Assembly: GCA_964387845.1 (NCBI GenBank)
Contig: CAYLXA010000008.1
Span: 44,270-108,269, forward strand
Direction: 5' to 3'
Length of the DNA: 64,000 bases
Origin: an uncultured bacterium
GTDB lineage: Bacteria; Omnitrophota; Omnitrophia; Omnitrophales; Abzuiibacteriaceae
A program made the translations under genes and the position numbers. The notes beneath the pieces were generated by a model that had not been told where the DNA came from, did no database searches, and worked only from the letters and a program-made list of their open reading frames with translations. Positions 3,584-53,779 of this stretch are shown here, piece by piece (within the stretch, counting starts at the first letter, position 1; every line of letters begins with the position of its first letter).

Positions 3584-3590
3584 TCGGAAC

Positions 3591-20001: not shown

Positions 20002-20006
20002 CGCCG

Positions 20007-20396: not shown

Positions 20397-20409
20397 GTAA
20401 GTAAGCACC

Positions 20410-20882: not shown

Positions 20883-21221
20883 ATGAGCATTCAGGAATTC
20901 CCCGAAATAGAAACATTTCATAAGCTTCCGCGCAAAGTCATCGTCAAAGGCGGAAGTTCCGGCTTCTCCGCGCAAGGCAAACCTGAGCTTCGCGGTATCG
21001 TTATCAACAATATCGGCCATACCGTCAAGGAAGTCCGTGTATCGCTCATTATTTTCAACCAGGATGAAATTCCGGTTTTAAACACGAGCATATCCGCGGA
21101 CCCCGAAATTCTGCAGCAGGGCGGTATCGGCTCGTTTACATTTACTTTGGATGATTACGGCAAAGAAATTACCAACTACTACCTCTATGCCAACTGGAAG
21201 TACGACGACTCAAACTGGTAA
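20883..21221 (+). CDS. Hypothetical protein (112 aa)
   Basis: ORF in coding-like sequence between the structured element and acs. I recognised no family. The ORF opens at 20787, and ATG 20883 is chosen as the start. Its 3' end overlaps the putative acs start by about 35 nt. Confidence 0.35.
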
Positions 21222-23193: not shown

Positions 23194-23211
23194 GGCTGTA
23201 ACACGTAAAGT

Positions 23212-23300
23212 AGGGTCAAGGGTCACGTAGCAAGGGGCAAGGTAAGAATAACAATTTCATTTGCGCCTTGACCTATGACCCTTAGCACTTGACCCTATGG
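23212..23300. promoter_or_regulatory. Cluster of direct and inverted TGACCC/GGGTCA hexamers in the acs / giant-gene intergenic region
   Basis: AGGGTCAAGGGTCAC (23212-23226) and CCTTGACCTATGACCCTTAGCACTTGACCCTATGG (23266-23300). This gives five or more copies of the hexamer in both orientations over about 90 bp. It is a candidate transcription-factor operator or terminator region. Confidence 0.3.
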
Positions 23301-23378
23301 TTTGCCTTCCAAAATCTCCTAATATTATTACTAATAAGTCATAATTAATAACATTTATAACATTTTTAAGTCCTGATA

Positions 23379-23407
23379 TTGAGTTTTATCAGTTTTCGAG
23401 ATATAAT
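23379..23407 (+). promoter_or_regulatory. Putative sigma70-type promoter of the giant gene
   Basis: TTGAGT (23379-23384), 17 nt spacer, TATAAT (23402-23407), about 40 nt upstream of the GTG start. An 8-bp inverted repeat CGAGATA...TATCTCG overlaps the -10 and start region. Confidence 0.4.
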
Positions 23408-23446
23408 TTACCCAATCTTTATCTCGAAAGGATTTCAAGCTCCCCA

Positions 23447-38400: not shown

Positions 38401-38992
38401 ACAAAACAGGTTGGATGCCGTCATTCATGAAATCCGGAATAATTCATCAAGTGCCGTACGTTCAGAATTAAAAGTTCAGAGCGAGAAATTGGTTCAATTT
38501 TTAACCGGCGGACAAAATAGAGCCACGTCATTGTCGGGCACTGCCGAAGCTGCCAACGCGCGCTCGGCGTTTGTCTTTTTGCCCGGAACCACCAATGAGC
38601 TGGGCGCTGTTTTTAACCAGATTACAGAAGCTCTTGCCGCCAAAAGCGAATTGAGAGCCGAAATCATTGCTTACGTGGATGGCCCGTTGATGGCGCGCAC
38701 AATCCGTGAAATCATCCTCGGTGTTCAGGGCGCTGAGCGTGTCCATATCGTGGCGAGTAATGAAGAGGCCGTGGCTAAAGCTCAGTCTCTAAACGTTGCG
38801 CATGCACATTTGATCGGATGGGAGGGGGAGCTTGAAGCGCCGTTTGTCCAAAATTTGGAGGACAGCTACCTGAAGCTCGGTATTCGCGTGGTGAAGAAAA
38901 ATGTAAGTGATTTCATGAGTTTTCTCGGGCGTGAGGCCGCTCGTTTTATCCAAGGATGGAAATCAGCAGTTCTCTACGCCAAATCCGCATAA
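23447..38992 (+). CDS. Giant (5181 aa) secreted/membrane-anchored mosaic protein with about 18 [RK]SELR linker motifs, 3+ methyltransferase domains, an M23 peptidase domain, HhH and HTH modules, and FYN-G beta-repeats
   Basis: Uninterrupted 15,546-nt ORF. N-terminal signal peptide MRKKPFFIKAIALALCFTFIATDTIAYS. TM clusters at about 23.84-24.12, 28.09-28.69, 31.0-31.35 and 35.46-35.83 kb. Recognisable modules: TrmB-like MTase (VVDVGFGNGETLL...FIGIEL), M23 (GFHTGIDF...PHLHLSIGW), RpoA-alphaCTD-like HhH (ISRLNIRYRLQRRIRQAGIRTVGQLVDL), MTS-type MTase (LVVGSGSGFDTW...FDRIIWNMPEH), PIMT (GQTISQPS...VLEVGAGSGW...PFDKIVVSAG...GGLLIIPV), 3 x HTH, 6 x FY(N/D)xxGxLL repeats. Confidence 0.85.
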   Translation: MRKKPFFIKAIALALCFTFIATDTIAYSDAAQTSPQLAEMLKQSSNWLSLRAATISGLFRNAAPSVSGTRLPAAAPKFARYLSELRNEANEKPVTADYISAQTIQNQKTNEITPPPQSELRQEKPRFKSRHSFFNHAIQLSRNLFKLSEWKHRILRLSSSFGNLPDDILFLVTTLPILIGILIVDALDNFHDNPKTNARIWFWVVTSSAVWLFSVLTANVVLFRFQKPAKRKLPAKSDQKVQRSELRGHSGVGSYVIGDLEFNKGDPTGFELIKRLIGEVRAGLLTGELQKAGLDQDSISHIFRLASSPSKSAREPIGFKYSEAAGQFELIKNDLRTYLHQLQKTQNHDHEINVYALGLGNLPVEAEEVIKLFLNVMEEELGEAAKNWSFNFIGIDFQDEPIKVARKYFAEDMASLKEKGFRKVTLQAVKANALSSSELTRVFEETGGSKKADYLFHRHVMYVNRASSWLNQLRGLTPITMLRPVLADALESYLQSQNLIGAFTKTGTRYVIEPLASSDPSIREVVIPGSSVLPQENGAAGSGIYIVNDPAVFTATGFIQYLQDQLGENFSISGPLRVDRTGGRGELRRASNFHFVNTVRRVLRREIAQIEKDKWQNWAVGFEPVQDVASHLVRGAKGELWIHLHLTYHGHDKRARFAENGVYDLGLLFRITDRENQLTLDAPMIEPQIGRSDYFAFTRAETVLSSEQAARLVKEGTEFVNSHAGPIRSAMRLAKKKPSSIHNLLGRAVSPRHARGLYNMMTLGHEEKRVIDRTKRRSVTYRFVGSRRSELRQKSELDSAREFVAHAIQTGQLKLDLFDRGREPAKQILQEVLAENQKRKTDHIQEVETARHKIATFESRFKKIRDEIDFDPFKPLAPTEQEKIMEWWADDLYMMEYEIRNYLAEIQSGQHPFSGNELDQVVDALIAAYRWSMDVVAFFEKQKAELLFFRNQETTDSEESADTMAALSGAFSVLADIKSPRGQIPENVFFAIAATKRHKAKEFLLSVLREIGFDKTKSETQKIVRGRALNYLFAHFHSSELAALARQAIENLGREQRFDYDGWAFDSAFMELLPYLGDENVKAYIFNYLKDDFQFGKALEAGNCLEYLLFDLETAEVPGWFKERLQIYSEKNAAAMDDFGITENQEAYLNRIKKLNDFLALKEAGIGLPSYQFSKYVFRPIHSQDEIDTLRKMSGSFPGRRPGWSPWDMTDFVLEDSKTRQIVGGGMISEHDYDTEAHHIHLVALSDQLQGRDRADAFVFILAGMLQSMSPKIKGRKVVWRTWVKDILEKTLALDLAGVDLEPLINQNPDDARSELLSKPESQNPILEINQDWRNIFDDNAKPLVVDVGFGNGETLLYRAQHEPDKNFIGIELPEEPYADMLAERIQTVGIKNLKVLKVADFEAFRTQLKFGNQAIVSELTYYDPFPDSPYVFREHTADLQQILKPGALVKIMVFEHEFWQELSGIFESNGFQTLNPADHVFEDNHDTQDSNEAFSTQLKLIFRWPGLSSNRSELRQDLKIQTILNDIAQSRLISENQPETRSFFNRISDRLKQKSVSQTFFLTGLLLSSYVYILFERWLAAEPVESNAQEIAAAILLLGIISTIFTTIVKRMNKSSTSWRWDVISFSENQIIEDALTFLDPHKHQLNPNVDIIVEKRSHRFKRIAIGFFKESLKNLGAGAMFLLIGGFLAWKIGYGLLDLYKQDLHAAFKVPVYGIFGAGLIVFGFVGMMGFTVLFLSPFIALMQAWDGEFSDKGIEDQRIFVQHQESEDVFYETLVEELNHRFKLRREPLPEFPKTLDGLRLAMILKRYGLPGSEIANRSASGLLRVLRPEGSETADRNALRANGSMEPRARGELRQSEPRKMSRAELASLFRAQLREANFIASIPVLIQHVWNVIAKLAKPLNFQFRELGLTQELLRLQTGFWITRFGPEDRMWWGLRDGMKFGDTVNWWGPKQKRPEPLGFHTGIDFVMYQNFQKAWKTIPEGTEVQALYGGTVVSVFQDDMQSTLVVNQEITDTDGGNTLVTIYAHIEPETNVQPGVKIEAGDVLGRIRRSRNERSIVSPHLHLSIGWAKPEFFERLKSDGVDWPFVDALAKEGLLTYVDPLTFLDKNEADHFFMNAQHNKLKKILILNTQPGAQFFLTRQVIEKQFPGVTTLAVRSFEEAQKILNDPSSEIDAVVRVDESASISFPRKYLKRTAVLDYQEKNKREFLRQLHVVNVIGRLYHEPISRLNIRYRLQRRIRQAGIRTVGQLVDLANLPKKFRKFTTGLSKVPEGLERRLQGSRYKDEIIRAIVSVQPQAILTRSILHRRSLGFFQMAYRLTFGFEYHPETRNFAELILFLNGLSGSVFKELVKQFDVHIQTDLIDILQRVARIAPEAISVNVLEMFIDDEETPKRMRENFNTLADLIHMARNDTKRFKEIFGYQISWHVLLLLLEILYDAVPGEIMWQEWPDLVHTVLNPHNLPRTFGSGGLSGHINAYSAAIQAHWRRLMAEHKGYAKRKDRSELRQAGDRQIFQRAFQGIAFGGYGAGLIAATWQMLTVYPQMLRPSLFVILLTWNFYQIVKLILKQPFVSQEKINQEKYINRQLIITHLPQLGLIKAHMLAPWLEAFMQAPEVGALFLTVSGLLVSKLAFDSYLRNDGRASGRSELRTNDPEEPNAKNPRTSTYETIISNRPQMNPTESNTEQASLFMAPLENVTPDAVRWLDRVFNSRLPKGQYVFVGVVVDRKSKDIQAFQDGVYMIAKFLEVGGAFEEIGLNEIKNKKLRRRITAVGKGSSVRVIEFASVGGGDDYEIPLRRLQGVVEDYYSNEPIVWIPISPEGELSSTLGWKPKNRAFHLTLVHQAPEQEPEARSELRNDGGIILEAGQQIKAVEGYQMQLQENGSVAFYRERLSSPEPDPVEVVKPTMAGMPVYDEAGNIMGYVGITHDFEGQGEDRKLIARTAFYPEPEFDIEKTHVPSTWPAWELLKAVGLLIPKEDAHILKIEDISQTSDSKIHRITVRVPEEQSFPLRGIEILARELIENPSAEQQFDLVYNEKGHLLAVFPVFGNENRAAAEDGLFLDVSPYYFEVPKDIRGESKLLIDQFLREWRQNQQHIQAYQKKHFGSNRMNFWHFSYNNDENNDEDNKEEPLYQFYHLLHSHGHDLSYLGEVEVQSLEHIFYYVSKDPDRKMLLLPIFPTVFPPSGDPQHDTEYHKAILIDPRFDLNENQRTLVVGSGSGFDTWLVSLKTRKTVSVIDINPLAVANTKALAKIAGFKVLARTADNIVDESGKPTFPDARFDRIIWNMPEHVEGDGPSHGQLATQRTKWYLTDHWDGDVDGFSLTRFASGLCDILNPDSRVLIWNSNNEDSILNAFENRGMEVERAGLNYRYSLYFIQPSAAAGELLEPISNSADQRSEPQKHIAVLQRFKHNPTGFMGWLKNEIAEVLTIIDMPSGQFMKLPDAERRKKNQRIENAISMLYGVEDFISAKDAAKIIKNIDEARRMLDEIYQMSEWRKNDFSAIRGGKQDSKLPASTEQAWHARDIFNEFLPKNGLGEALQKYTGDKKVLDTAAEKWLPVFTRVPKHLFMPKYLRQDAYLHDAPYRIGYGQTISQPSLVAFILALLDLEPSDEVLEVGAGSGWLAALMSQQAAHVYATELIPQLAGRAERVIENMGIQNVSIVEADGSVGYPQAAPFDKIVVSAGSPNVPELLVNQLREGGLLIIPVLDPAASKKQKSYKLTLFVKEGGKLTEKLAIDRVNFVDLRGVHGWQPAPKRSELRRAAQPKDSNSEKSTPKPETESDRRIIRAVNYFLKEKRPFNQGDIAKKARVSLQTVTNRKHANPSIARFVDWALEKAPKAEPKSVQALIRAAKQLKKEGKSGVTNSVVADLAGYHPQTVTSISKLYPKVKQAVQGARQSPHAQISPTIQKVVDVIKAAAKKKQVFQNEGQIAQAAEIRPETLSRIKKRRSSYREPFLQLLQYAVSDPDRALEIIKKHFSIHSEQRVSVQASAQDENLRSELRADGAIQDPGMVVTALIGVAAFGILIFGFDSVRERAFKVGSAALKLIRRLFWLWTGVLWISTHLAYAAHRVRPDSQDKIYQATGFDPGDLNYSEFLYPWAIFTVFIYPVAAFGLMRYLNRLVMRRNVLPFETSPSRSIPAHPTTSELDINRKVGTAQPSDQYSKDPLMKGRAELRASGSNPKKKDTSKATDLEKRFKELLEEADRTLEANKQLEDGLDEIHKVLPELPKDIIDGRSELRQSDPIGTASALPGPLAKSELRNFLPNQNPINRLDAKQGSGIGARGNVLEGRSGSNSEFYNYRGEKVLVLPTSTAKGILGLGDFIVVMPRPKPGTQDHILFYNSSGSLLFEAVNVSDYSLVGENMAIKFANGNIQFYDKTGKKLLSSFDHFSNFHPSQIDLQGDLLVFKKSSNEVGFYNSTGSLILRKSKGTDFDSFYVKGSFIVLVKKDNHHVYSGLTGKLIAKTQASVGETAQFDGDFFAVVNWNEFTFYNLQGKKILEKRTGSGDDNFINWSGEGGLLTFDKTHSRTFYDENGKLLAAIQKRVFASRVVNKVLRLEDNADFYEWYDFSPNALSASSKGQKSLDQIFSHNPAMLSRIRDYVKRRYDNPLMSREEPNHDLSSDLDDASNLIQLEKMPTEWIDDLSSLVLTGYNPSDKGARSILKEAAIQLGLIQAPSSQTKEAVPITYNQKALMRILSSGVITEAIRNGQFSFPTTGKRSSLIFLSDDGTNVKRIDETDSAKANVQLEFYLSSDNRTVGVSISVRDDNKASGWRVQHEEPKQLKDLQTSIEPASSKPSLTIVSARKQRTLDELINKVSKFPGWSNPGPSTYSFAHQATQISAFYTGIVPNLQPRWAWHLKVISSGYNLSVVVEDHIQSPGKWITVVKFNNSGSNNSVASQEWGNHLIDIEQNGLKTNIYMTKAYVDSLVKNRIPLKGATIDGVEWEFIPINPKQILPAKSELRTQAEQVSIETLDAALSVEPKAQNRLDAVIHEIRNNSSSAVRSELKVQSEKLVQFLTGGQNRATSLSGTAEAANARSAFVFLPGTTNELGAVFNQITEALAAKSELRAEIIAYVDGPLMARTIREIILGVQGAERVHIVASNEEAVAKAQSLNVAHAHLIGWEGELEAPFVQNLEDSYLKLGIRVVKKNVSDFMSFLGREAARFIQGWKSAVLYAKSA

Positions 38993-40491: not shown

Positions 40492-42486
40492 TTATTCGTA
40501 ACGAAGTGCTTCGATAGGATCGAGTTTGGCAGCTTTTTGTGCGGGCCAAATGCCGAAAATGATGCCGACGGCGGAGGAGAATCCGACGGAGAGCAGAATT
40601 GAATTGAGGGAAACACGGACGGCCCATCCAAAAGCATGCGCTAAACCGTAAGCGACGGCAGAACCGATCAAAATGCCGGCAGCGCCTCCGATCAAGCTGA
40701 CCACCATCGATTCAACCAAAAATTGCAAATAAATGTCCTTCCTCTTTGCGCCGATGGCCTTCCGGAGGCCGATCTCTTTTGTTCTTTCCGTAACGGATAC
40801 GAGCATGATGTTCATGATACCGATTCCGCCGACAAGAAGCGCAATTCCGGCGATAGAGCCCAGAAAAATCGTCATGGTTTGAGTGACTTTTGCGATGGAT
40901 TCCTGAATCTCCGTCATGTCGCGGATTGTGAAGCTGTCTTTACGGGTTTCGGGGAGCCGGTGGCTTCTGATGAGCATGGGAATAATCGCATCCTTTACGT
41001 CCTGAATTTTTTCTTTTGCTTCAACTTCAACTTCGATGGTGCGCAAATAATCGGTGCCGATGAGCCGTTTCATGGCGGTCATGATCGGAATGATGACCAC
41101 ATCGTCTTGATCGCGCCACTGGTTTCCGCCTTTTTCGGGAAGGACGCCGATGACGCGGAAGGCGATCCGGTTGATACGGATAATTTTGTTAATCGGATCT
41201 TCTTTATCAAAAAGTTTCTGGCGGACTGTTTTGCCGATCACAACTACTTTGGCTCTTGTCATATTTTCCCTGTCCGTAAAGAACCGTCCGAGAACAGGTT
41301 CTGCCGCGCGCATTGAAGCGTATTCGGGAGCAACGCCCTGGACTTCCGAATTCCAATTTTTGTTTTGATACACCAGCTGTACGCCGGCCTGGACCGTGGG
41401 GTTGACGCGTTTAACATTCGGAAGTTCACGAACGGATTTCAGGTCGTCCAACGTGAGCCGCGCCGCAGCGCCTTCTGCCATGGCAACGCCGCGCAAAATC
41501 GCGTTGTTGGGCCTCACGACGATTAAATTAGAGCCCAATCTTTCGAGGTCAGCCGTCATGGAAGCTTTGGTGCCTTCACCGAGCGCGAGCATCGCAATCA
41601 CGGATCCGACACCGATTAAAATTCCGAGCATTGAAAGCACCGAACGGACTTTATTGGCAAGAATGGCGGTGATGGCTTGTTGAACAAAGATGCTGATTTC
41701 TTTGAGGATTGAAGAAGAAGGCTTCCCCTCACCCTTACCCTCTCCCCTTAGGGGAGAGGGAAAAGAATTCGATCCCCCTCTCCCTCCGGGAGAGGGTGGG
41801 GTGAGGGAGGTTGAAGAGCCTGAGTCAGAAACGATCTGCCCGTCTTTCATTCGGATTTGGCGCTTTGCATATTCCGCGACTTCTTCTTCATGCGTCACCA
41901 GAATAATCGTGAGCCCCTTTTCATTCAGATTTTTAAGCAGTTTCATAATTTCAGTTTGCGTGTGTGAATCCAAATTTCCTGTCGGTTCATCCGCCATGAT
42001 GATTTTAGGATCGTTGATGAGTGCGCGAGCGATGGCAACGCGCTGCTGTTCGCCGCCTGAGAGTTGGTTGGGTTTGTGCTGTGCGCGTTTCTCGAGATTG
42101 ACTTCGCGTAAGCGTGTCAGAATTTTCTCTTCATTTTGGGAATCTGCATTCGGGCTATAAATCAGCGGCAGCGCCACATTTTTGGATGCGGTCGTGCGGG
42201 AAAGCAGGTTGAACATTTGAAAAATAAAGCCGATTTTTTGATTTCTCAAAACCGCAAGCGCATCATCCGAAAGCTCCGAAATTTGCTCGCCGTCCAAAAT
42301 AAATTCGCCGGAGTCCGGAACATCCAAAAGGCCCAGGACGTGCATCAAAGTTGATTTTCCGGAGCCCGACGGGCCCATGATGGCAATAAATTCGCCGGGT
42401 TGAATGTCGAGTGAAACACCGCGGAGTGCGTGGACTGAGGTTTCGCCGGAAGAGTAGGTTTTTTGAATATTTTTGAGCTTGATCAT
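40492..42486 (-). CDS. macB: MacB-type ABC transporter (fused ATPase + FtsX-like permease) with an in-frame palindromic-element insertion in the linker
   Basis: Walker A GPSGSGKST, Q-loop, signature LSGGEQQRVAIARAL, Walker B IIMADEPTGNLD. C-terminal 4-TM FtsX domain. The linker PSPGGRGGSNSFPSPLRGEGKGEG is encoded by the repeat at 41725-41808. Confidence 0.9.
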   Translation of the reverse strand: MIKLKNIQKTYSSGETSVHALRGVSLDIQPGEFIAIMGPSGSGKSTLMHVLGLLDVPDSGEFILDGEQISELSDDALAVLRNQKIGFIFQMFNLLSRTTASKNVALPLIYSPNADSQNEEKILTRLREVNLEKRAQHKPNQLSGGEQQRVAIARALINDPKIIMADEPTGNLDSHTQTEIMKLLKNLNEKGLTIILVTHEEEVAEYAKRQIRMKDGQIVSDSGSSTSLTPPSPGGRGGSNSFPSPLRGEGKGEGKPSSSILKEISIFVQQAITAILANKVRSVLSMLGILIGVGSVIAMLALGEGTKASMTADLERLGSNLIVVRPNNAILRGVAMAEGAAARLTLDDLKSVRELPNVKRVNPTVQAGVQLVYQNKNWNSEVQGVAPEYASMRAAEPVLGRFFTDRENMTRAKVVVIGKTVRQKLFDKEDPINKIIRINRIAFRVIGVLPEKGGNQWRDQDDVVIIPIMTAMKRLIGTDYLRTIEVEVEAKEKIQDVKDAIIPMLIRSHRLPETRKDSFTIRDMTEIQESIAKVTQTMTIFLGSIAGIALLVGGIGIMNIMLVSVTERTKEIGLRKAIGAKRKDIYLQFLVESMVVSLIGGAAGILIGSAVAYGLAHAFGWAVRVSLNSILLSVGFSSAVGIIFGIWPAQKAAKLDPIEALRYE
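41725..41808. repeat. Double-unit REP-like palindromic element inside macB
   Basis: CCCCTCACCC..CCCTCTCCCC-TTAG-GGGAGAGGG...CCCCCTCTCCC-TCCG-GGAGAGGG-TGGGGTGAGGG. Two inner palindromes sit within outer CCTCACCC/GGGTGAGG arms. It is related to the unit at 16970-17011. Confidence 0.7.
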
Positions 42487-42492
42487 GAACGA

Positions 42493-43449
42493 TTAAGCCG
42501 ACATGAAGGATTTCTTTTTGTTGGACCTTTTTGTATCCTCTTTTTTTGATTTGATGACAATCGTATCATTTTCTTGAAGGCCGCTCATGATTTCATAAGA
42601 AATATTGTCATCAATTCCGACTTCAATTTCGCGGGAAGCAGTTTTGGATTTTTCTTTGACCATTACATGCTTTTTATTGCCGCGCTCCTGCACGGCTTCA
42701 ATTGGAATTAAAAGTGCATTGTCTTTACGCGCAATTTCGATTTCAACATTGGCGGTCATGCCTGAAGCGAATTGATCGGGAACTTTTTCGGGCAGGATGT
42801 CGACTTTATAGATGATGACATTATTGACCGTTTCGGATTCGTACGCGATATGGTCTACTCTCGATGAAATTTTCAAATCCGGATACGCATCCAGATAAAT
42901 TACAGCATGCTGGCCGATTTTGACTTGTCCGATGTCGGTTTCGTCCACAGACGCTTTCACAATTAAGCGGTCGGCAAGAACGAGCACCACGTCGCTTGTA
43001 TTCACGGTTTGGCCCGGCTCAACACGGCGGACAATCACCGTACCGTCAATCGGCGCAAGGAGCGGCGTGGGTTTGTAAACATTCTGCCAGTCCGTACTTT
43101 GTTCGCCGCCATTTCCCTGAAGATGCATCGCATCCAAAAGCACGACACGGTCTGTGGAGCTCATCCAAGCCAGGATTTCACCTTTTTTAACTTCGCGGCC
43201 TTCTTTGACAAGAACATCGTCGATACGGCCTGCGACAGGCGGTTTAATTTCAAGTCTGTTTTGCGGTTTCACTTCGCCGGTCGCTGTGATGGTGACGGTC
43301 AAATCGCCGCGCGTTACTTTGATTTGCTTCTCAACTTCTTTGCTATCTTTTTCAGATAGTTTTCCGCTGACGATGCGGAAGCCTGCGAAAGCGATCAGTA
43401 AAACGACCAGAATTTTAATGGGTGTTAATTTAAGATTGCCGGAAGCCAT
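42493..43449 (-). CDS. macA: HlyD/MacA family periplasmic adaptor (membrane fusion protein)
   Basis: N-terminal TM anchor, then coiled-coil and beta-barrel blocks (VTRGDLTVTITATGEVKP...IKPPVAGRIDDVLVKEGREVKKGEIL). Start chosen at ATG 43449. It overlaps the tolC stop by about 20 nt. Confidence 0.85.
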   Translation of the reverse strand: MASGNLKLTPIKILVVLLIAFAGFRIVSGKLSEKDSKEVEKQIKVTRGDLTVTITATGEVKPQNRLEIKPPVAGRIDDVLVKEGREVKKGEILAWMSSTDRVVLLDAMHLQGNGGEQSTDWQNVYKPTPLLAPIDGTVIVRRVEPGQTVNTSDVVLVLADRLIVKASVDETDIGQVKIGQHAVIYLDAYPDLKISSRVDHIAYESETVNNVIIYKVDILPEKVPDQFASGMTANVEIEIARKDNALLIPIEAVQERGNKKHVMVKEKSKTASREIEVGIDDNISYEIMSGLQENDTIVIKSKKEDTKRSNKKKSFMSA

Positions 43450-44758
43450 ATTCAAAACCCAATCCCTGCCGTTGAATCCAGCGCGCAATGGCAATCAGCG
43501 CATCGCGTTGTGCGTCCAAATACGCCTTTCGCGCGCTTGATAATTCGTCTTCAATTTGATTCCAATCCTCAAACAGTTCCGTGCCGCTGGCATATTGCGC
43601 AGATGAAACTTCGGCGCGGAGCATTGCGGCGTCCAGGAATAATTTTCGCACATCGACTTGCGCAATTGCATCAATTGCCCGCGCCCATTGATCTTCAATA
43701 TTGATTACTACGTCATTGAAAGCGCCTTGCTCATCATCAATCGCTTTCTCGTAATCTGCTTTTGCCTTGGAAAGTGCAAATACTTTTTCGCCGCCTTCAA
43801 ATAGCGGCTGCCGGACAGTTGCCAAGATGCTCCACGAATGCCCATTGACGGCACGCCAACGGTCGGGTGCGCTGAGTTGCTGTGAGACCGACAAATCCAG
43901 AGTCGGGAAAAATTCCGCCCACTTGCTGACAACAGTCCAGCGTTCGGATTTGCGGCTTGCCGCTGCTTGAAGCAAGCCCGGGTGTTTGGCGGCTAACTCA
44001 TCCGGTTTAATTTCATCTTCGATTGGCTTGATGTCAAAATTGCCTTGCGCGACAAGCGGCGTGAATTCCCGGCGCCCGAGTGTTTGATTCAGTCTCCGCT
44101 GATTCACCCGGAGCCCGCGTTTGGCTTGTTCGATTTCAAATTTGGCCTGTGCAAGATTGGCTTGCGCGCGAAGCAAGGCGCCACGGTTTTCGCGGCCGCC
44201 TTGATAGCGCAAATCAACCAAGTTCACGTTGATTTGCCGCCGCTCGGCGATTTCTTCCGTGATTTGGATTAATCTCTGAGTCCGCAGCAATTCTACAAAG
44301 TTTGACCTTAATTCAAGCAGAATATCCGCGGAGGCTGCCGCATAAAATTGCCGCGCCGCTTCCAAAAGCTGTGATTGCGATAAAATATTGGCCGGCGTTT
44401 TAAAGGAATCAAAAATGAGCTGGCTTCCCGAGAGTTCGTAATCAGTGTCGTAGGTATGTTTGACATGTGGTGTCTTTGCGACCGTGTTGTCCATATTGAC
44501 GGAAACCTGGGGCAGGTAAGCGCTGATAGCTCCTCGCTTATCCGCAAGCGCCGATTTGATACTTTCCCGGGCGGCGTTCAGATCAGGGTTATTGTTGTAA
44601 GTCTCAAGCAAGCACTCATCCAAGGTCAGAGACCATTTTGCCGTAATCTGAGCTTCCTGTGCGGCCAATGGATTGGAGAATGACAATACAAATGCAATAG
44701 CCGACAAAACAGGCAAAACATGGAAGGAGTTCGATTTAACTATCTGCAAAAGCTTCAT
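43430..44758 (-). CDS. tolC: TolC family outer-membrane efflux protein
   Basis: Signal peptide, tandem alpha-helical/beta repeats with LTLDECLLETYNNNPDLNAARESIKSA... typical of TolC/OprM-family channels. First gene of the minus-strand tolC-macA-macB operon. Confidence 0.85.
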   Translation of the reverse strand: MKLLQIVKSNSFHVLPVLSAIAFVLSFSNPLAAQEAQITAKWSLTLDECLLETYNNNPDLNAARESIKSALADKRGAISAYLPQVSVNMDNTVAKTPHVKHTYDTDYELSGSQLIFDSFKTPANILSQSQLLEAARQFYAAASADILLELRSNFVELLRTQRLIQITEEIAERRQINVNLVDLRYQGGRENRGALLRAQANLAQAKFEIEQAKRGLRVNQRRLNQTLGRREFTPLVAQGNFDIKPIEDEIKPDELAAKHPGLLQAAASRKSERWTVVSKWAEFFPTLDLSVSQQLSAPDRWRAVNGHSWSILATVRQPLFEGGEKVFALSKAKADYEKAIDDEQGAFNDVVINIEDQWARAIDAIAQVDVRKLFLDAAMLRAEVSSAQYASGTELFEDWNQIEDELSSARKAYLDAQRDALIAIARWIQRQGLGFEYGFRQS

Positions 44759-46381: not shown

Positions 46382-46410
46382 TTGACAGTGTTTTGAGGAT
46401 TGAATATCAT
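46382..46410 (+). promoter_or_regulatory. Putative sigma70-type promoter
   Basis: TTGACA (46382-46387), 17 nt, TATCAT (46405-46410), upstream of the 46544 secreted-protein gene. Confidence 0.45.
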
Positions 46411-46543
46411 CGCCTCACTGGGGGAGGCCCAGCCAAAGCAATTCTCGCTTCATTCATTAAAATTAAATAATAATTTGAAATATTTATTTTTTAAATTAAA
46501 TCAAACAAAAGCCAAATCAATCATCTCAAGCGGAGAAAAACCA

Positions 46544-47095
46544 ATGAGACAAAAATTTCTGGCCTTACTGCCGGTGTTGACGCTTGCTTTTGCGTTTTCA
46601 ATGCCGTCAGCATTGCATGCCGAAGATTCCTACATTGATCAATTAGCACGCCAAGTTCAGCAAGACATCCAATCCGGCGCCATTAAAGACAAAGTTAAGC
46701 CGGTGGACACTACCACGCAGACAACTCCGCCTGCGCAGCCGCAAACACCTCCACGGAGCCAATATGACCGTGAGTTAGATCAGCTTCATCTTGCAAGGTT
46801 TTTCGGAACTATCTTAGGTCCGGATGAATTTTCAAAGGATGAATTTTGGGAAGGACCGGATGATGAATCGGGCGACTATATGTTTGGCGATAGCTTGATC
46901 AATGTAACGCACATTGATTATCTTGGTACCGGCAATGGCCGTGTCATCGGTTCCGACACAGACTATGCAAGGCCTTGGAGTGTTAATGATAATATTCTTC
47001 GCGATGCTATTAATAGCAATGATTTTTCTACCCTAAGCCAGCGTCTTATTGAGTTGGGGTATCGCACTGGCGAGTTCAGGATTGAGGCTCAGTGA
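46544..47095 (+). CDS. Secreted hypothetical protein (signal peptide, Pro/Thr/Gln-rich linker)
   Basis: MRQKFLALLPVLTLAFAFSMPSALHA signal peptide. RBS GGAGAAAAACC. No family recognised. The ORF opens at 46400. Confidence 0.5.
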   Translation: MRQKFLALLPVLTLAFAFSMPSALHAEDSYIDQLARQVQQDIQSGAIKDKVKPVDTTTQTTPPAQPQTPPRSQYDRELDQLHLARFFGTILGPDEFSKDEFWEGPDDESGDYMFGDSLINVTHIDYLGTGNGRVIGSDTDYARPWSVNDNILRDAINSNDFSTLSQRLIELGYRTGEFRIEAQ

Positions 47096-47142
47096 TCATC
47101 ATGCGTAAATCACAGCTCATAAAATCAAAGGGACCTGTCACC

Positions 47143-48474
47143 ATGGATAAAAAAATCATAAAATTGCTTGTTCTTCATTTGGTAATGGCGCTTGCATTCA
47201 GCGCCGTTCCGTTTACGCCGGCCTATGCTTCTGATGGCGTTAGTGCTGCCGCCGGTTTTGCGGATGATATTTTAAACGGGCTCGAAAACCTCGTCCACAA
47301 GAGCGGGTTGATCGATCTCAAGTATAAGATTAAAGAACAATACGGTTTGCTGGTAAAGCCGTTCTTGAAAACGGGTTATGACTATTCTTCTAACGTTTTC
47401 AAAGCCAACAGCGTGAATTCAGCCGGTGATAATATTTGGACCGTCACGCCGGGCGTTCAGTTCAAGTACAAGAATGAACAAGCCACTATCGGTGGTGCCT
47501 ATGAAGCGCCTTTCCGCTGGCTGGCGAATTATTCCGAACAAAATACACAGACACAGCGTTTCATGGTGTATGCCAATTTAGAGCCTTCCGATGATTTTTA
47601 CATCAACATCGGCGAGCGCTTTGCGTCGGAAGAATCGATCTCTGGCTCTTCAACGTCAGAGCCGGTTGCTTTCTTGGACAATACTGTGAACGTTACTTTA
47701 GGATACCGCGCTGACGAGGATTACACCTACGAAGTTGGTTATGAATTGTTTGACCGCAACTTCCGTTCCACAGCAGCGGATATCTATAGCTATTCTGTTA
47801 ACAAATTCTCACCCCGAGTTTACCGCAAAGTTGAAGGCGGCAAAGTGTATACGGGCGTTGATGTCGGTATTGTGAATTTCAACAAAACCGATAGCCGCGA
47901 TACCGTTTACACCGAAATTCCGGTGGGCTATCAAGGCGAACTTCCGTTTTGGGGTTTGATCGGCGATGTGAAGGTTGGTTATCATAATCGCAGTCTCCAA
48001 GGCCACGCAGGGCGCAATGACTGGAGAAACATTGTTACCAATCTTGCGGTTCAAAAACGCCTGAATGGCGACAAAACCGTTGTGTCGGCTGGTTTCACGC
48101 GTCAACCGGTTGAGTCCAGCTTTGCAACTGCCACGACCTATGACGAGAAGTCATTTTTTGGTTCCGTGAAGCATTTAATCACGCCAAAACTCAGAGGCCG
48201 CGCTTCGGTGCGTTTTGCCAATGAGGATTATTATGACGGAACGGCAGTTGGCAGCCGCATAGCGGTTGCAGGCACGAATGTTATTATTGTTGTTCCGGGT
48301 GGCATTGTGAAAAGAGACGATGATGTATTCAACTATAATCTCGGCCTCGATTACAATGTCCGCAAATGGCTGATATTGCACGCGGATTATCAGTTTACGC
48401 GCCGCAATTCTAACATTTCAGCTTTGGATTATACGGACAACACAATTTCACTCGGCAGCACCATCCCGCTCTAA
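47143..48474 (+). CDS. Putative outer-membrane beta-barrel protein
   Basis: Signal peptide MDKKIIKLLVLHLVMALAFSAVPFTPAYA. Alternating hydrophobic/polar amphipathic beta-strand pattern rich in Y/G/N/T throughout. Confidence 0.5.
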   Translation: MDKKIIKLLVLHLVMALAFSAVPFTPAYASDGVSAAAGFADDILNGLENLVHKSGLIDLKYKIKEQYGLLVKPFLKTGYDYSSNVFKANSVNSAGDNIWTVTPGVQFKYKNEQATIGGAYEAPFRWLANYSEQNTQTQRFMVYANLEPSDDFYINIGERFASEESISGSSTSEPVAFLDNTVNVTLGYRADEDYTYEVGYELFDRNFRSTAADIYSYSVNKFSPRVYRKVEGGKVYTGVDVGIVNFNKTDSRDTVYTEIPVGYQGELPFWGLIGDVKVGYHNRSLQGHAGRNDWRNIVTNLAVQKRLNGDKTVVSAGFTRQPVESSFATATTYDEKSFFGSVKHLITPKLRGRASVRFANEDYYDGTAVGSRIAVAGTNVIIVVPGGIVKRDDDVFNYNLGLDYNVRKWLILHADYQFTRRNSNISALDYTDNTISLGSTIPL

Positions 48475-48503
48475 AGAAATAAAGCGGTTTCTGAGAATCA
48501 AAT

Positions 48504-48545
48504 ACAAAACGGGACAGCTTTTAAGCTGTCCCGTTTTGTATTTGA
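48504..48545 (+). terminator. Rho-independent terminator
   Basis: CAAAACGGGACAGC-TTTTA-GCTGTCCCGTTTTG followed by TATTT. Confidence 0.65.
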
Positions 48546-48731
48546 CCCTTCTGTGTAGGTTCTAGCAATTCAGATTCTGATATGAAAGGTTACAATATTA
48601 GGTCGATAAATATATATAATCGGTATATTCAATTTAGAATATCAATGTAAGTCTTTTATTTATAATACTTTATGTATTTATATTTCATTTGAACAAACGA
48701 GATTAAAGTGCTAAGATTCGATCACGGTTAA

Positions 48732-51700
48732 ATGAAAGTTATGCAAGGCCAAAAATATACCGCTCACCTTAAATTTGTTTCCTTATTCTTAATTATCACA
48801 CTTCTTTTAAACTCAGTTGCTTGGGCAGATCCGCCGAACGCTCATTTCTCGAAACTACCGCCCCATGTTTCGGTTTCTCATGTTAGTGAACCGATTCAAC
48901 TCCGCGATTTAAATGTCCTCGTTGATTACTTGACCGCCGACTTAAAGAACGAAGTTAAAATTGATATATCCAAAGAAACAGGAATCATTCGATCTATTTT
49001 ACGACATGATTCGCATTCTAGCCCTTTTGATTTTGATGTTGTTTTAATTCAGGATGCGCATGTCGATAACGAAGCGCAAACCAATATTCGACAAATTCTT
49101 CATTCTTTGTCAAAACAGATCGACCAACCGTTACTTATTGCGTTGGAGGGTACGAGCGGAAATTTAGAACCGAATATATTAAATTTCTTTCCGGACTATC
49201 CAAAAATCAATTCAATAATTGTGGAGGACTTGGAAAAGAGGGGAGAGCTGACAGGCGCTGAACGCTTCGCGTTTGAAAATCAACGGAATAAAACGCTTCT
49301 GGAATTTTGGGGGGCCGAAAACATTGATCAATACAAACAAAACCTTTCCGAATTTCGAGACGCTCTTCGGTTTTTTATAAATCATACCTCAGAACTCGAG
49401 CAAGCTGAGAGCCGGCTTGCCGGATTTCGCAAGCAAATTTTGAATCCTGAATTATGGTTCTTCCTAGAAAAGAGGGATGCTTTTTTAAAGGAAGAAGTTG
49501 ATTTAGCTGCTTATCTTACTTTTCTTCAGAGTGAGGCGATTCAGCATATAAAGCTTAATTTAGCCGATATTAAGCACCAATTTGATTTTCCAAATCTGGT
49601 TCGCTTTTCAAAACTTAAATACGAGGAAAATAAATTAAATCCTGAAAAGGCTTTGGAAGAATGCAGCAAACTTCTCTCTCTCGTTCAGAAGGAAATACCG
49701 AAAGGAAAAATTCAAAGTTATCTAACAGAACATCTCTGGCATCTTTCAAGAGATGTTTCTTTGCAACTGCCACAAAGTTCTCATCAAAATTTTTTTACTT
49801 CTGACCGACCTGTTATTACAGAAAAATCGCCGAACGTACGAGAGTTGTTTGAAATACTTCACGCTTCTTCGTTTATCTACAAATTTTCATTAGTACCGTT
49901 TCGAAACCTCATCCGTCTCGGACGTTTTTTGGCATTTCAATCGGAAATTGATGCCGCATCATTTTTTCAGGAGGTCCGTAAATTAGAAAGTTTGATCATT
50001 CGACGATTGGCCAAAACGCGCGAAGAGAAAAGACTTTTAGCTGCTGTGACTCGATGGAATTTGGTAAAAAAACTTTATGCACTTGAACTCAGTCGTTCGG
50101 AATTTTTGGATTATCAAAAATCGAAGCCACGGATATTAAAAACAATCTTGCGCTTTTTCCCCGCGCTTCCGGCGCCTGCACTTTCAGAAAAATTCTACGA
50201 TGGAGCATTAAAGCGCGACCATGTTCTTGTCCAAAACGCGCTTAATCATGCGGCCGGACGGCCCGTCATCATGGTAGCGGGCGGGTTTCATGCTGACGGA
50301 ATCGAATCTTATCTTCAAGACAACAATTTATCGTACGCAACCATTTCTCCGTCTATCAAAAACCCGAGCAAAGACCGCGAATCCTATTTTAAAACCTTTC
50401 AAGACGAAAACATCTCCTTTATTGTGGATATGCTGCGCACGAGCAATCCCGGCTTTTTTCGATCTGTCCGCGGCGAAAGACAATTCAATCTATTCGCTTT
50501 GGCAATTAGAAATCAGGAGGCCAATTTAGTTCGCATTTATTCTTTGACCCCCGAACAAGCGCGCTCGGAAATCAGGCAGGCGCTGGATCGGTGGCGTTTT
50601 CAATCCAGATCGGAATTGCGGCAAGACAGAAGTACCATTGTTACACCTGATAAAATCGAATCAAATTTTTCCAACAGTTCAGCAAGTCGCGCTCGAGAAA
50701 CGATCATTCCTCAAAGAATTCATCCCGGCACAATTGAAAAAATGCAAATTCCGTGGAGTTACAAATTAAGTCCAAAGTATTTTTGGAATTATCACAAAGC
50801 TTTAAGCCTGTCGGGCCTGGTTGTTTTTGGCCTGCTTTTATTTACAGCCGTAACCGGAAGAATTTTAGAACCGTTTACTGTTTTTTACTCCACGGTTTTT
50901 GCAGGCCTTTTAATGGCTCAAGCGGCCCGGTTTATCAAGAACCTCCTGATTCCTCCGGCGCATTATGTCATGCGAGATGACGGTGTCGCATTATTAGATA
51001 CTCATAACATAGAAATATTAAATCAAATCGTCTATCAATCCGAGATTCCATCCGCGATTTACATTGCCGTTGAAGATCAATTTGAAGGCAAAGATGAGAA
51101 AAGGCCGAATTATGAGGCCGTAAAAGCCTATGTTGAATTTCGCCAGGGATCATCACAGGGGTTTCGAAAAGTGAAAATCATTCCGCTCAGTAGATTGGGG
51201 CGGTTGTATTACACAAACCTTTACAATCAAAATCAAACCGGTGTGAAAAACATCATTTCAAGAAGTTTTCTCTTTGTGTGGAAATGGAAATTGTGGATAT
51301 GGATGCCTTTACTGCTTCCGGTTTGGTTGGCCGCAAATTTTCTCACGTTTGGTTATCTCAATCACGATTCTTTAATTCATTTTTACGGCGTAAAACCATT
51401 GCAAGGATGGGTAAGCTTGACGGATGTATCCGAATGGCTTCTGCATCTCAAATGGAGTTTTCTGCATCGAATCGAAATTCTCTTGTTCCTGGCGAATGAT
51501 TGGTTTAACAACACAAACAGCCTGTCCCCATGGTTTCAAACTATCGTATCGAATATTTTAACCAATCTAAGCGCCAAGTTATTTTCGTTATCAGAAACGC
51601 CGGGGTTATTCAGCTTGTACGCGGCAAAAGAAAAGGCAACAGACTACATTGCCTGGACTACGGTGATGGAGTCACTGACGTTTATCAGTTTTTTAGGTTT

Positions 51701-53426
51701 GGTAACGTTGGCGATGCTTTGGCTCCATTGGCAGCGGAGCCGCGAGAAAATTACTTATACGTTAACTGGCAAATCGCTTCCTGCGAAAGGAAAAATAAAA
51801 GGAATTTTTAATATAGGACTGATATCAATTCTGTTTTTAGCGGTCCCGGTTTTAATAGCCCCTCTCACCAATGGATTTATTTTGAGCCCGGTTGCGCAAA
51901 AGGCAATTCAGAATGACTTTAGCGAAGACAGGTCTTCGCTGGGTTTTATGTTTAAATATGCGGTTGAGCGGCAAGAGAATATTCGAAAAGATGATGAGGG
52001 ATTGAGAAGAGTGTTTGTGAAACTTCTCGAAAAGTTTGGGAAGGACGAAGATTTCACCAAAAACGGAGCATTTGACAAATATTTTGGGCGGCTCGGTCTG
52101 CAGGAATTTGAGTTTTTGATTAATCAATATCCGGAAGCGCGAACAGGGCTTTTGCAGTTATTAATCAAAGATCTGAACTTAGATCAAATTTTATTAACAC
52201 CCGGTATGGCGGCTCAAAGATTTCCTGGAAGCATTCAAGTTAAAGACAAGATCGACAAAATAAAGAATGTTAAATTGCCGGCAGATTTGAAAAAATTAAA
52301 ATTAGTTTTTGAAAACATGATTCAAGAATGGGAATCGGGAGGCAGCGAGCTTTTCAATGATCTTTTGAAGATCCAGGTTTTTGCGTTTGAAGATCAATAT
52401 TCTCCACTTTATATTGTTCCCTTAGGAGAAGAAGATCAGCTGGAAAAGTTTTTGAAGAATCTTGGAGAATTTGAAAAACCTCAGCAAGGGACAGAGGCTT
52501 TAGTTCCGGCATTGATTAAATTGGCCAAGAAGATGAGTTATTTGCCAAAAATAAGCCTGCAAGTGCCCAAGGCTAAAGATTTCAACCGGTCAGAGTTGCG
52601 CAAACCAACTTCGCGTTCTCAAATTTTATCGCGAATGCCGGATCATAACAATAAACATATTCACCATGCACTAAGCGCACGATTTTCATTTCAAGCTTCC
52701 GTGCTTTTTTTAGGAATTTTACCGGCCGCGTTCTCTGGAATTTCACCACCCGCCGGAAGACCGAATTTTGGTCTGCAGTCTTTACAGCATGAAGATTTTC
52801 AAGCAGTGATCCGATGGCTGCGTGAAAAAACGGATTCGCGGCTCAAAAAACAAGCAATTGAGTATTATACCGGTTTTTTTCAAGCGGAGCCCTCAACCGT
52901 TCCACAAACCATTATTCTTACGAGCGATTTGTTAACCCCCGAAGTGGTTGATGGAATTAACCAAGTAAGCTTAAATCCAAACGCAAAAATCATCGTTTAT
53001 GATGTAGGTGATTTAACAGCGCGATCCCTTCTTCCGCAACTTATCCGTGCGTCAGTTCGAAAAATATCAAAAAATGGCGCGGGATTTGATATCAATCAAT
53101 TCTTAAAAGAGGAAGTGCGCTCCGATAGATTGCCGCATACCGCTGTCTGGACAACGGAAACACATTTCGCAGATATTGAAAAAAATAAAGGTTTTCAATT
53201 TGTGGCGAAAAATCAATTGATGCGCGACGACAAATTGCGCGGGGCAGCGCTTTTATTACAATTCTTGCTCGTTCAGTTAGTTGCCAAACTCGGCATATTT
53301 CCTCAAAATCGAGACGAACTTTGGAAAAGAACATCCGACAATCGAATTGAATTTAATTTAACCAATCGAATTTTACAAATCCAAATGATTCATTCGGAAA
53401 TAAAAACGCTGCTGAGTTTTGCTTGA
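48732..53426 (+). CDS. Large (1564 aa) secreted/membrane hypothetical protein carrying two RSELR motifs, in a low-GC segment
   Basis: Uninterrupted 4.7 kb ORF. N-terminal signal/TM region (FLIITLLLNSVAWA), internal TM cluster at about 50.78-51.85 kb, mostly predicted helical. RSELR at 50607-50621 and 52587-52601. GC is clearly lower than the flanking housekeeping genes, with a very AT-rich upstream region. Confidence 0.75.
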   Translation: MKVMQGQKYTAHLKFVSLFLIITLLLNSVAWADPPNAHFSKLPPHVSVSHVSEPIQLRDLNVLVDYLTADLKNEVKIDISKETGIIRSILRHDSHSSPFDFDVVLIQDAHVDNEAQTNIRQILHSLSKQIDQPLLIALEGTSGNLEPNILNFFPDYPKINSIIVEDLEKRGELTGAERFAFENQRNKTLLEFWGAENIDQYKQNLSEFRDALRFFINHTSELEQAESRLAGFRKQILNPELWFFLEKRDAFLKEEVDLAAYLTFLQSEAIQHIKLNLADIKHQFDFPNLVRFSKLKYEENKLNPEKALEECSKLLSLVQKEIPKGKIQSYLTEHLWHLSRDVSLQLPQSSHQNFFTSDRPVITEKSPNVRELFEILHASSFIYKFSLVPFRNLIRLGRFLAFQSEIDAASFFQEVRKLESLIIRRLAKTREEKRLLAAVTRWNLVKKLYALELSRSEFLDYQKSKPRILKTILRFFPALPAPALSEKFYDGALKRDHVLVQNALNHAAGRPVIMVAGGFHADGIESYLQDNNLSYATISPSIKNPSKDRESYFKTFQDENISFIVDMLRTSNPGFFRSVRGERQFNLFALAIRNQEANLVRIYSLTPEQARSEIRQALDRWRFQSRSELRQDRSTIVTPDKIESNFSNSSASRARETIIPQRIHPGTIEKMQIPWSYKLSPKYFWNYHKALSLSGLVVFGLLLFTAVTGRILEPFTVFYSTVFAGLLMAQAARFIKNLLIPPAHYVMRDDGVALLDTHNIEILNQIVYQSEIPSAIYIAVEDQFEGKDEKRPNYEAVKAYVEFRQGSSQGFRKVKIIPLSRLGRLYYTNLYNQNQTGVKNIISRSFLFVWKWKLWIWMPLLLPVWLAANFLTFGYLNHDSLIHFYGVKPLQGWVSLTDVSEWLLHLKWSFLHRIEILLFLANDWFNNTNSLSPWFQTIVSNILTNLSAKLFSLSETPGLFSLYAAKEKATDYIAWTTVMESLTFISFLGLVTLAMLWLHWQRSREKITYTLTGKSLPAKGKIKGIFNIGLISILFLAVPVLIAPLTNGFILSPVAQKAIQNDFSEDRSSLGFMFKYAVERQENIRKDDEGLRRVFVKLLEKFGKDEDFTKNGAFDKYFGRLGLQEFEFLINQYPEARTGLLQLLIKDLNLDQILLTPGMAAQRFPGSIQVKDKIDKIKNVKLPADLKKLKLVFENMIQEWESGGSELFNDLLKIQVFAFEDQYSPLYIVPLGEEDQLEKFLKNLGEFEKPQQGTEALVPALIKLAKKMSYLPKISLQVPKAKDFNRSELRKPTSRSQILSRMPDHNNKHIHHALSARFSFQASVLFLGILPAAFSGISPPAGRPNFGLQSLQHEDFQAVIRWLREKTDSRLKKQAIEYYTGFFQAEPSTVPQTIILTSDLLTPEVVDGINQVSLNPNAKIIVYDVGDLTARSLLPQLIRASVRKISKNGAGFDINQFLKEEVRSDRLPHTAVWTTETHFADIEKNKGFQFVAKNQLMRDDKLRGAALLLQFLLVQLVAKLGIFPQNRDELWKRTSDNRIEFNLTNRILQIQMIHSEIKTLLSFA

Positions 53427-53500: not shown

Positions 53501-53779
53501 ATGAAGCTCAATTCGAAAATAATAACAATACTGATGGGTGCAATGGCGTTGGTTATGCTTTTTGCTGACGTATCGCTTTTTGCTGCGGTGGACCAGGGTC
53601 CTCGCGTTGAAATTTCAAGAAGGCAAAGGCGATTTACGACAGGCATAGGCATCAACGCGCAAGGAAGCGCTGTCATTGCAGAGCACTGCACGTATTATGA
53701 AATTACATGGTCTGACGGGTCGGTTTCTAGTACACGGCCAGATTGCTACGAGGATTTTATATCTTCGAACGATCGTTAA
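53501..53779 (+). CDS. Small secreted hypothetical protein (92 aa, 4 Cys)
   Basis: Strong RBS AAAGGAGAAAAAATG. Signal peptide MKLNSKIITILMGAMALVMLFADVSLFAAV. Confidence 0.45.
   Translation: MKLNSKIITILMGAMALVMLFADVSLFAAVDQGPRVEISRRQRRFTTGIGINAQGSAVIAEHCTYYEITWSDGSVSSTRPDCYEDFISSNDR

Follow-up and report, generated by a model that had tools for sequence, protein, structure and literature searches.

This analysis indicated that a 1564-amino-acid (aa) protein encoded in a 64,000-nucleotide (nt) stretch of DNA from an uncultured Omnitrophota bacterium (positions 44,270 to 108,269 of contig CAYLXA010000008.1, GenBank assembly GCA_964387845.1; the whole stretch is hereafter the window) belongs to a very large, undescribed family of Omnitrophota proteins, which bear a common N-terminal head domain and are punctuated by the pentapeptide RSExR. 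Its open reading frame (ORF; 48732-53426, plus strand, ATG start) is the second longest of the window, behind an ORF of 5181 aa at 23447-38992 (hereafter the giant ORF), and public assemblies hold a protein identical to its product (P0001). RSExR is a motif selected at the peptide level, present across the phylum, located at module edges and confined to large modular proteins. Our reading of the 1564-aa ORF, to which we give about even chances as a whole, is that it encodes a modular precursor in which a signal peptide or anchor and a hydrolase head (residues ~95-560) would be followed by a polytopic membrane module (631-1285) and a soluble module (1291-1564) ending in a tail, and in which copies of R-[S/A]-E-[hydrophobic or small]-R would serve as sites of site-specific endoproteolytic processing at the module boundaries.

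The occurrence of the motif in the window was clearly not random. The composition of the 1564-aa protein predicts 0.003 copies of RSELR, and two were found (Poisson P(>=2) = 4e-6), in frame at 50607-50621 and 52587-52601 and within polar, hydrophilic linkers, as stated in a preliminary description of this DNA made from the letters alone, which had overlooked a third copy, the variant RSEIR at residues 611-615. Nine exact copies, against 0.01 expected, were present in the giant ORF, together with seven one-residue variants (RGELR twice, RAELR, KSELR three times and RSELK). The restriction of the motif to these two proteins, also part of that description, was confirmed, the remaining 40 ORFs of the window (13,683 aa) containing no RSELR, SELR or RSExR of any kind. 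Beyond the motif, BLASTP revealed no homology between the 1564-aa protein and the giant (best E = 0.8). The codons used differ at every position of the motif (CGA, CGT, CGC, AGG or AGA for the first Arg, TCN or AGC for Ser), which argues for selection on the peptide and not on a DNA repeat, and a DNA-level repeat was accordingly ruled out as its source.

A shared pentapeptide might nevertheless be a coincidence, or a by-product of repeated DNA, and one additional RSELR, at 52169-52183 within the 1564-aa gene, could be cited in favor of this view. This copy lies in a different frame, in a stretch of ~40 codons bounded by stops; we rejected it as a sign of a frameshift because the open stretch is short and stop-bounded, and we judged it to be due to chance. 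Chance as an explanation for the in-frame motifs, which the preliminary description had left open, was not borne out: the Poisson value given above for the 1564-aa protein alone, the 63-fold enrichment in 133 independent proteins described below and the synonymous variation in the codons for Ser (TCN/AGC) and Arg (CGN/AGR) render it vanishingly improbable.

The motif, taken at first as a local peculiarity of two genes, indeed turned out to be a phylum-wide feature of large Omnitrophota proteins. A head profile built from alignment A1 and searched against 1.84 billion proteins matched 10,222 cluster representatives at E <= 0.001 and 7,220 at E <= 1e-30, and the match lay in every case at residues 1 to ~580 of a protein 600-7,500 aa long. 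The 1564-aa protein matched this profile over residues 4-598 (E = 9e-161), and no other ORF of the window did so. Its homologues are named Omnitrophica or Omnitrophota wherever the source gives a name; they match only its residues ~95-560, at their own N-terminus, and are 1000-2700 aa long, the head being followed by unrelated domains (UDP-glucose dehydrogenase, phosphoenolpyruvate (PEP)-utilising enzymes, glycogen phosphorylase, glucosamine-6-P isomerase, histidine kinases, receivers, GGDEF). A scan of one genome per species, run with a smaller alignment (A2), recovered more than 442 relatives, and the locus statistics reported here concern the best 80 of these, which come nearly all from Omnitrophota, often with at least three paralogues per genome. 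The head family forms tandem arrays and is multi-copy per genome. On contig JAJDCD010000025.1 (97952-140574; loci L011 and L072), two head genes are adjacent, and a third is found elsewhere in the same genome.

Enrichment of the motif was observed in both sets of homologues. The 56 proteins of the first search contained 91 RSExR in 104,830 aa, with V, A, L, T, M or I as the fourth residue. The 133 further head-bearing proteins, which amount to 340,256 aa, contained R[SA]E[LVIMATS]R 514 times, a density of 1.51 per 1000 aa versus 0.024 expected (63-fold), while scrambled motifs gave 9-18 matches and versions with K for R or D for E gave 3-19 in the same proteins. Ala takes the place of Ser in ~23% of the copies, which makes a Ser phosphorylation site unlikely. 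In the 80 loci, motif density depended on ORF size, with 0.02 motifs per 1000 aa in ORFs of 100-300 aa and 0.06 in those of 300-600 aa, compared with 0.94 in those of 1000-2000 aa and 1.36 in those of at least 2000 aa. The motif is absent from further large ORFs, among them the one for glutamate synthase in the window. The fourth residue was moreover genome-specific (all Leu in the window, 8/8 Leu or 11/12 Val elsewhere; chi-square P ~1e-15), in line with co-evolution with one reader per genome, and it was mixed in several other genomes. Some family members devoid of RSExR repeat other strings, namely QMGKRAEVR three times in P0034 (640-650, 1151-1161 and 1732-1742) and SETIYAPDG three times in P0037, and these may be lineage-specific substitutes for it.

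In the 133 proteins, the first copy lies at median residue 674, directly past the head, and successive copies are separated by a median of 252 aa, which is about the size of one protein. The motif is flanked by polar sequence in which Pro, Ser and Ala abound, and a small residue is favored just ahead of the first Arg; in the 1564-aa protein, the linker around the first motif (residues 559-607 and 617-625) was modeled at low confidence, with a predicted local distance difference test (pLDDT) score below 50. Recognizable enzymes begin or end close to the motif: in P0009, the match to UDP-glucose dehydrogenase begins at profile position 2, eight residues past RSEVR, glucosamine-6-P isomerase starts 20 residues past RSELR in P0013, and the PEP-utilizers domain of P0006 stops 18 residues ahead of RSEVR. 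The same was observed in the giant ORF, which carries housekeeping-type modules (TrmB-like at ~1320-1486, peptidase M23 at ~1984-2071, HemK2/MTQ2-like at ~3200-3367 and a near full-length Pcm at ~3556-3752), each bracketed by the motif or by degenerate copies of it (RSELL at 1313, RSEPQ at 3398). The Pcm match stops at profile position 215 of 217, ~6 residues ahead of the RSELR at 3758, and the TrmB-like module is flanked by RSELL at 1313 and RSELR at 1512.

Hydrophobic helices were also distributed unevenly around the motif. Only 4 of 628 motifs overlapped such a helix, and helices within 40 residues were found after 9.9% of the motifs and before 2.5%, versus 5.7% at random positions, as expected if the motif precedes the start of a module. 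The excess after the motif could also be explained by a topogenic role, in which RSExR would be the positive flank of internal signal-anchor helices and would set the orientation of the following segment; P0002 provides an example (RSELRVAELVVGAIALGVV), and the two Arg suit the positive-inside rule. However, a hydrophobic helix within 40 residues is lacking for ~90% of the 628 motifs, many of them stand directly ahead of soluble enzymes (UDP-glucose dehydrogenase, glucosamine-6-P isomerase), and a plain charge rule explains neither the invariant Glu nor the strict preference for Arg over Lys. We thus consider a topogenic element to be very unlikely.

Regarding the head itself, its model contains the alpha/beta core common to the Tiki/TraB/EreA/ChaN superfamily, a parallel beta-sheet flanked by helices. 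In an alignment of 18 heads, H110, E139, G140, E196, R495 and G517-G518-F519-H520 were invariant and D108 nearly so (16/18). By sequence comparison, the conserved D108, H110, E139 and H520 agree in order and spacing with, and may correspond to, the catalytic sets of the superfamily, which comprise the 2His/2Glu of RRSP (E3900, H3902, E3930 and H4030) and the His-Glu pair of erythromycin esterases; HopBA1 presumably adopts an EreA/ChaN-like fold as well. The predicted fold, together with these residues, places the head within the superfamily as a candidate hydrolase, either a peptidase or an esterase. None of the Pfam or NCBIfam models covers it: the best Pfam match, Cofac_haem_bdg (ChaN), missed the cut-off (E = 0.076, 13.4 bits versus 27.7) and spanned residues 481-522 only, and NCBIfam gave no match. 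The head therefore constitutes a new family of the superfamily, outside the existing ones. A search of PDB sequences with the head profile returned nothing meaningful. In contrast with the known members of the Tiki/TraB/PrgY/EreA/ChaN superfamily (the Wnt protease Tiki, the Ras/Rap1 endopeptidase RRSP, erythromycin esterases, the haem-binding lipoprotein ChaN), the head lies below all Pfam and NCBIfam thresholds, its core is split by a helical insertion of ~300 residues, and it is always N-terminal on very long modular proteins.

From a mechanistic point of view, modules may be released at RSExR in a polyprotein-like manner, and the simplest candidate for the protease would be the head, which would cut its own chain as well as head-less substrates such as the 5181-aa giant. 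The layout, in which a short, specific and lineage-tuned sequence is placed in disordered linkers at the outer edge of enzyme-sized units, indeed resembles those of viral polyproteins and autoprocessed multi-effector toxins. We regard cleavage at RSExR as an evenly balanced proposition, and the identification of the head with the cutting enzyme as a doubtful one. More generally, the large and giant ORFs of Omnitrophota (in some cases >100,000 codons) could be cellular polyproteins, or "protein operons," cut at RSExR, perhaps co-translationally, into dozens of enzymes and membrane proteins of ordinary size by a dedicated family of Tiki/TraB-like head proteases, with a fourth residue tuned in each genome; we put this forward tentatively, as a possibility that falls somewhat short of even chances.

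Several points weigh against such processing. The case for cleavage is built on the position, spacing and conservation of the motif. The known Tiki-family proteases (Tiki, RRSP) cut at unrelated sites, and the superfamily includes members that are not enzymes (ChaN, PMT C1/C2). No motif was found in 40 of the 133 head-bearing proteins (~30%) or in about half of the first set of homologues, and, conversely, large ORFs without a head, including the giant of the window, carry it, so that head and motif are not strictly coupled. A Foldseek search of the PDB with the whole 625-residue model gave nothing significant (best match ChaN, probability 0.63, E = 0.64), and the model displays no ordered docking of the linker (pLDDT < 50) on the head. 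Topology is a further difficulty. The 1564-aa protein may be exported by means of its putative N-terminal signal, and comparable AxA or YAQ sites occur near the N-terminus of its homologues; a working signal peptide would place the head outside the cytoplasm, while the cargo of many relatives consists of cytoplasm-type enzymes, and enzyme and sites may consequently lie on opposite sides of the membrane.

The main alternative is that RSExR remains uncut and is conserved as a linker element that a common partner (for instance a chaperone, a regulator or a factor involved in assembly or export) recognizes or docks on. The products would in that case be intact, membrane-tethered multi-enzyme scaffolds, and the head one more enzymatic module. 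Enrichment, location at boundaries and genome specificity would suit any sequence-specific reader, the loose coupling of head and motif raises no problem in this case, and published accounts describe membrane-anchored multi-enzyme polypeptides (10.64898/2026.06.07.730766). By contrast, the arrangement seen here, a pentapeptide near native enzyme ends, about every 250 aa, in disordered, Pro/Ser/Ala-rich linkers, is the one typical of cleavage sites in polyproteins, and a docking role comes without an identified candidate partner. A single working chain translated from tens of thousands of codons is, in addition, probably hard to square with ribosome processivity. An uncleaved docking motif is thus conceivable, and we rate it as rather unlikely.

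Whether cleaved or not, the motif links the 1564-aa protein to the giant ORF. The preliminary description had assigned the former to the latter as a "second substrate or partner" of the same system, and this assignment was supported by the same non-random pentapeptide in inter-module linkers and by the two highest tail scores of the window (see below). It is a fair description, since the 1564-aa protein shares the motif system and is the only head-bearing protein of the window, the giant having no head. Unrelated genes occupy the 9.7 kb that separate the two genes. In the closest relative, P0002 (32% identity across the head), 64 nt separate the gene from a preceding giant ORF of the same strand (at least 9,746 aa), whose last 3,300 residues contain seven RSE[LAV]R. 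Among the 48 head genes with enough upstream sequence, 11 were preceded on the same strand by an ORF of at least 1000 aa that ended within 1.5 kb. Locus L002, which holds a motif-rich giant ORF, contains another giant ORF (18664-25667; at least 8,259 aa according to the assembly gene call) with no RSExR in the 2,334 residues available, and not every giant ORF of one genome therefore uses the motif. In the locus of the closest relative, a gene for a peptidase M48 (L002/L003, 16871-17701) is flanked by two giant ORFs, possibly by coincidence; the window also begins with a peptidase M48 gene (9-923), which the Pfam profile matched only at positions 114-185 of 186.

A second shared feature was found at the C-terminus. 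Large Omnitrophota ORFs (loci L002-L084) share an amphipathic helix of ~22 residues that ends in A-x-[A/S]-A, with hydrophobic residues at -22, -19, -18, -15, -11 and -5, Ala at -9 and -4, Ala or Ser at -2 and Ala at -1. In the loci, 72% of the ORFs of at least 1000 aa end in Ala, versus 8% of those of 100-300 aa, and this is also the case for 106 of the 133 head proteins. The Ala-Ala end of the transfer-messenger RNA (tmRNA; ssrA) tag resembles this ending. In the window, the tails lie at 38921-38989 in the giant ORF and at 53352-53423 in the 1564-aa gene, whose product ends in KTLLSFA. Their tail-profile scores (2.6 and 0.1, respectively) ranked first and second among the 42 window ORFs, the others scoring -22 +/- 9, and are weak compared with typical tails of the family (19 +/- 7). 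BLAST clustering and iterated profile searches for a shared C-terminal domain among family members gave small subgroups only, the common part being the last ~22 residues. Stepwise C-terminal trimming, which would place a tail-like end before each motif, was rejected, as the 24-residue stretches preceding the motifs scored like random internal sequence.

Base composition was modulated in the region of the 1564-aa gene, as had been noticed beforehand. The gene is visibly richer in AT than its neighbors, with a GC content of 0.406 versus a window gene mean of 0.463 (standard deviation (SD) 0.041; ~1.4 SD low) and a GC content at third codon positions (GC3) of 0.388 versus 0.504 (SD 0.063; ~1.8 SD low), and the shift is alike in all three modules. 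The strong terminator and the AT-rich region reported upstream were also recovered, the latter extending up to the start codon; the terminator hairpin sets the gene apart from the upstream operon. The small Cys-containing ORF described after the gene is likewise present. These features had been interpreted as the marks of a low-GC island, in which the gene and its flanks would be a horizontally acquired module serving the giant gene. In line with this, the raw tetranucleotide distance of the region is the maximum of the window (z = 3.1), the terminator bounds the region, and modules 2 and 3, as well as the small downstream ORF, are orphans: no homologue of residues 631-1564 was detected by homology search, and neither the 1564-aa protein nor the 92-aa ORF matched Pfam or NCBIfam. 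However, the gene for glutamate synthase, a GC-rich neighbor, deviates equally in raw distance (z = 3.0), and tetranucleotide usage was ordinary once normalised for base composition (z = -0.3 to -0.9; correlation 0.93-0.94 versus a mean of 0.942). Moreover, no tRNA genes, flanking repeats or integrase or transposase ORFs were found among the neighbors, and the head family, represented by several paralogues per genome, is itself native to the phylum. An AT shift without transfer is common in fast-evolving, lineage-specific genes. The transfer scenario was therefore not supported, and we consider it improbable.

The coordinates of the features discussed here are given in Table 1. The neighbors of the 1564-aa gene are ordinary Gram-negative chromosomal genes (haem biosynthesis, folD, panB, acetyl-CoA synthetase, ispH, a MacB/HlyD/OEP exporter, glutamate synthase), and scans of the window for tRNA, tmRNA and Rfam families found none. 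Upstream of the terminator, an ORF of 231 aa without a family match (46400-47095) and a putative beta-barrel porin of 460 aa (BBP2_2; 47092-48474) have overlapping stop and start codons. A tripartite exporter operon, made up of a MacB-type ABC transporter, a HlyD-family adaptor and an outer-membrane factor, is located on the minus strand at 40492-44758, between the two motif-bearing genes. Two further ORFs stand out by their composition: a very AT-rich one (58727-59101, GC 0.339), which matches the "23S rRNA intervening sequence protein" family, separates the genes for the large and small subunits of glutamate synthase, and one of 96 aa (10274-10564), with the lowest GC of the window (0.313), lies between folD and panB.

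Table 1. Features of the motif-bearing genes and their surroundings (window coordinates).
Feature	Position	Strand	Basis or remark
Giant ORF, 5181 aa, without head domain, ends in LYAKSA	23447-38992	+	
Motif copies in giant ORF	starts at 24173, 25196, 25808, 27980, 29006, 30962, 31391, 32009, 34718, 35441, 35963, 36155, 36218, 38324, 38459, 38642		
Degenerate motif copies in giant ORF	starts at 23690, 23795, 27383, 33638		
Perfect 22-bp hairpin, terminator of upstream porin-like gene	48500-48543 (approx.)	+	RNA fold -37.7 kcal/mol, z = -9.1 versus 200 shuffles
AT-rich 5' region with promoter-like site at 48569-48596	48544-48731	+	consensus match alone, 9/12 positions
1564-aa ORF, three-module protein of the RSExR-punctuated family	48732-53426	+	
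Putative signal peptide or signal anchor, residues 1-33	48732-48830	+	basic N-terminus, hydrophobic 13-31, VAWA/D site (hydropathy scan, sequence)
Head domain, residues ~95-560, predicted Tiki/TraB/EreA/ChaN-like alpha/beta core with ~300-residue helical insertion	49014-50411	+	
Candidate catalytic residues of head	D108 (49053), H110 (49059), E139 (49146), R495 (50214), H520 (50289)	+	
RSEIR variant, residues 611-615	50562-50576	+	15 residues ahead of first RSELR
RSELR, residues 626-630 (FQSRSELRQD)	50607-50621	+	head/module 2 boundary
Module 2, residues 631-1285, predicted membrane module, orphan	50622-52586	+	hydrophobic segments 690-708, 978-996, 1025-1043 (hydropathy scan)
RSELR, residues 1286-1290 (FNRSELRKPT)	52587-52601	+	module 2/module 3 boundary
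Module 3, residues 1291-1564, orphan, predicted soluble, finishes in family-type C-terminal tail	52602-53423	+	
Last 24 residues (...RILQIQMIHSEIKTLLSFA), weak copy of family amphipathic tail, Ala at end	53352-53423	+	tail-profile score
92-aa ORF, hydrophobic N-terminus, two Cys	53501-53779	+	also called as gene in public assembly

The giant proteins of Omnitrophota have already been the subject of several reports, which described membrane-anchored multi-enzyme architectures and suggested proteolysis without giving a cleavage site. Their cleavage points were stated to be unknown, and the authors were unable to split the proteins for analysis for want of such points (10.1101/2023.11.21.568195). 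In the Omnitrophota giant-protein literature examined, we found no mention of RSExR, of a Tiki-like head at the N-terminus or of an Ala tail at the C-terminus, nor, in the literature at large, any account of an RSELR, RSEVR or RSExR motif or of a link between Omnitrophota and Tiki/TraB, an earlier description elsewhere being possible. The proteins studied here resemble these giants (the "multi-enzyme metabolic cluster" class; Archaeovorin, Dockerin-type) in that they come from the same phylum, bear an N-terminal signal peptide and/or transmembrane helices, tile many unrelated cytoplasm-type enzyme domains on one chain, are poorly conserved in sequence and occur as tandem large ORFs. They differ from them in size, since the published catalogues start at a protein length of 10,000 aa (Nielsen and Lui) or at ORFs longer than 20 kb (Seymour et al.), versus 1564 aa and 5181 aa here.

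Other systems offer partial parallels. Processing of MARTX toxins is performed by a cysteine protease domain; neither this domain nor RTX repeats were found with Pfam and NCBIfam in the 1564-aa protein or in the giant. In MARTX, the Tiki-fold domain is part of the cargo, whereas the Tiki-like domain is here the N-terminal head, and the units found in the proteins studied here are enzymes of housekeeping type and membrane segments, not recognized toxins; their release by cleavage is a proposal. As is generally known, viral polyproteins and the multi-core precursors of ribosomally synthesised and post-translationally modified peptides, such as the cyanobactin precursor PatE, likewise place a short recognition sequence at every unit boundary of one translation product, and this sequence co-varies with the processing enzyme of each lineage. 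Unlike these, the genes considered here are chromosomal bacterial genes for ordinary enzymes, and the motif has no protease tied to it.

Omnitrophota are widespread, uncultured and very small bacteria whose giant genes are among the longest known; the products of these genes may act as single chains or be cut up. RSExR offers a concrete candidate for the long-sought cutting points, and the conserved head, found on more than 10,000 protein clusters, a candidate for the enzyme. If cleavage does occur, it would explain how working products arise from extremely long ORFs, the protein-operon mode would represent a form of gene expression unknown at such a scale in any cellular organism, and the motif would provide a simple rule for the computational dissection of Omnitrophota giants. 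Even if the motif is not cleaved, motif, head and tail together define a very large family that has no Pfam or NCBIfam model, and they offer a practical segmentation of large proteins for structure prediction and annotation.

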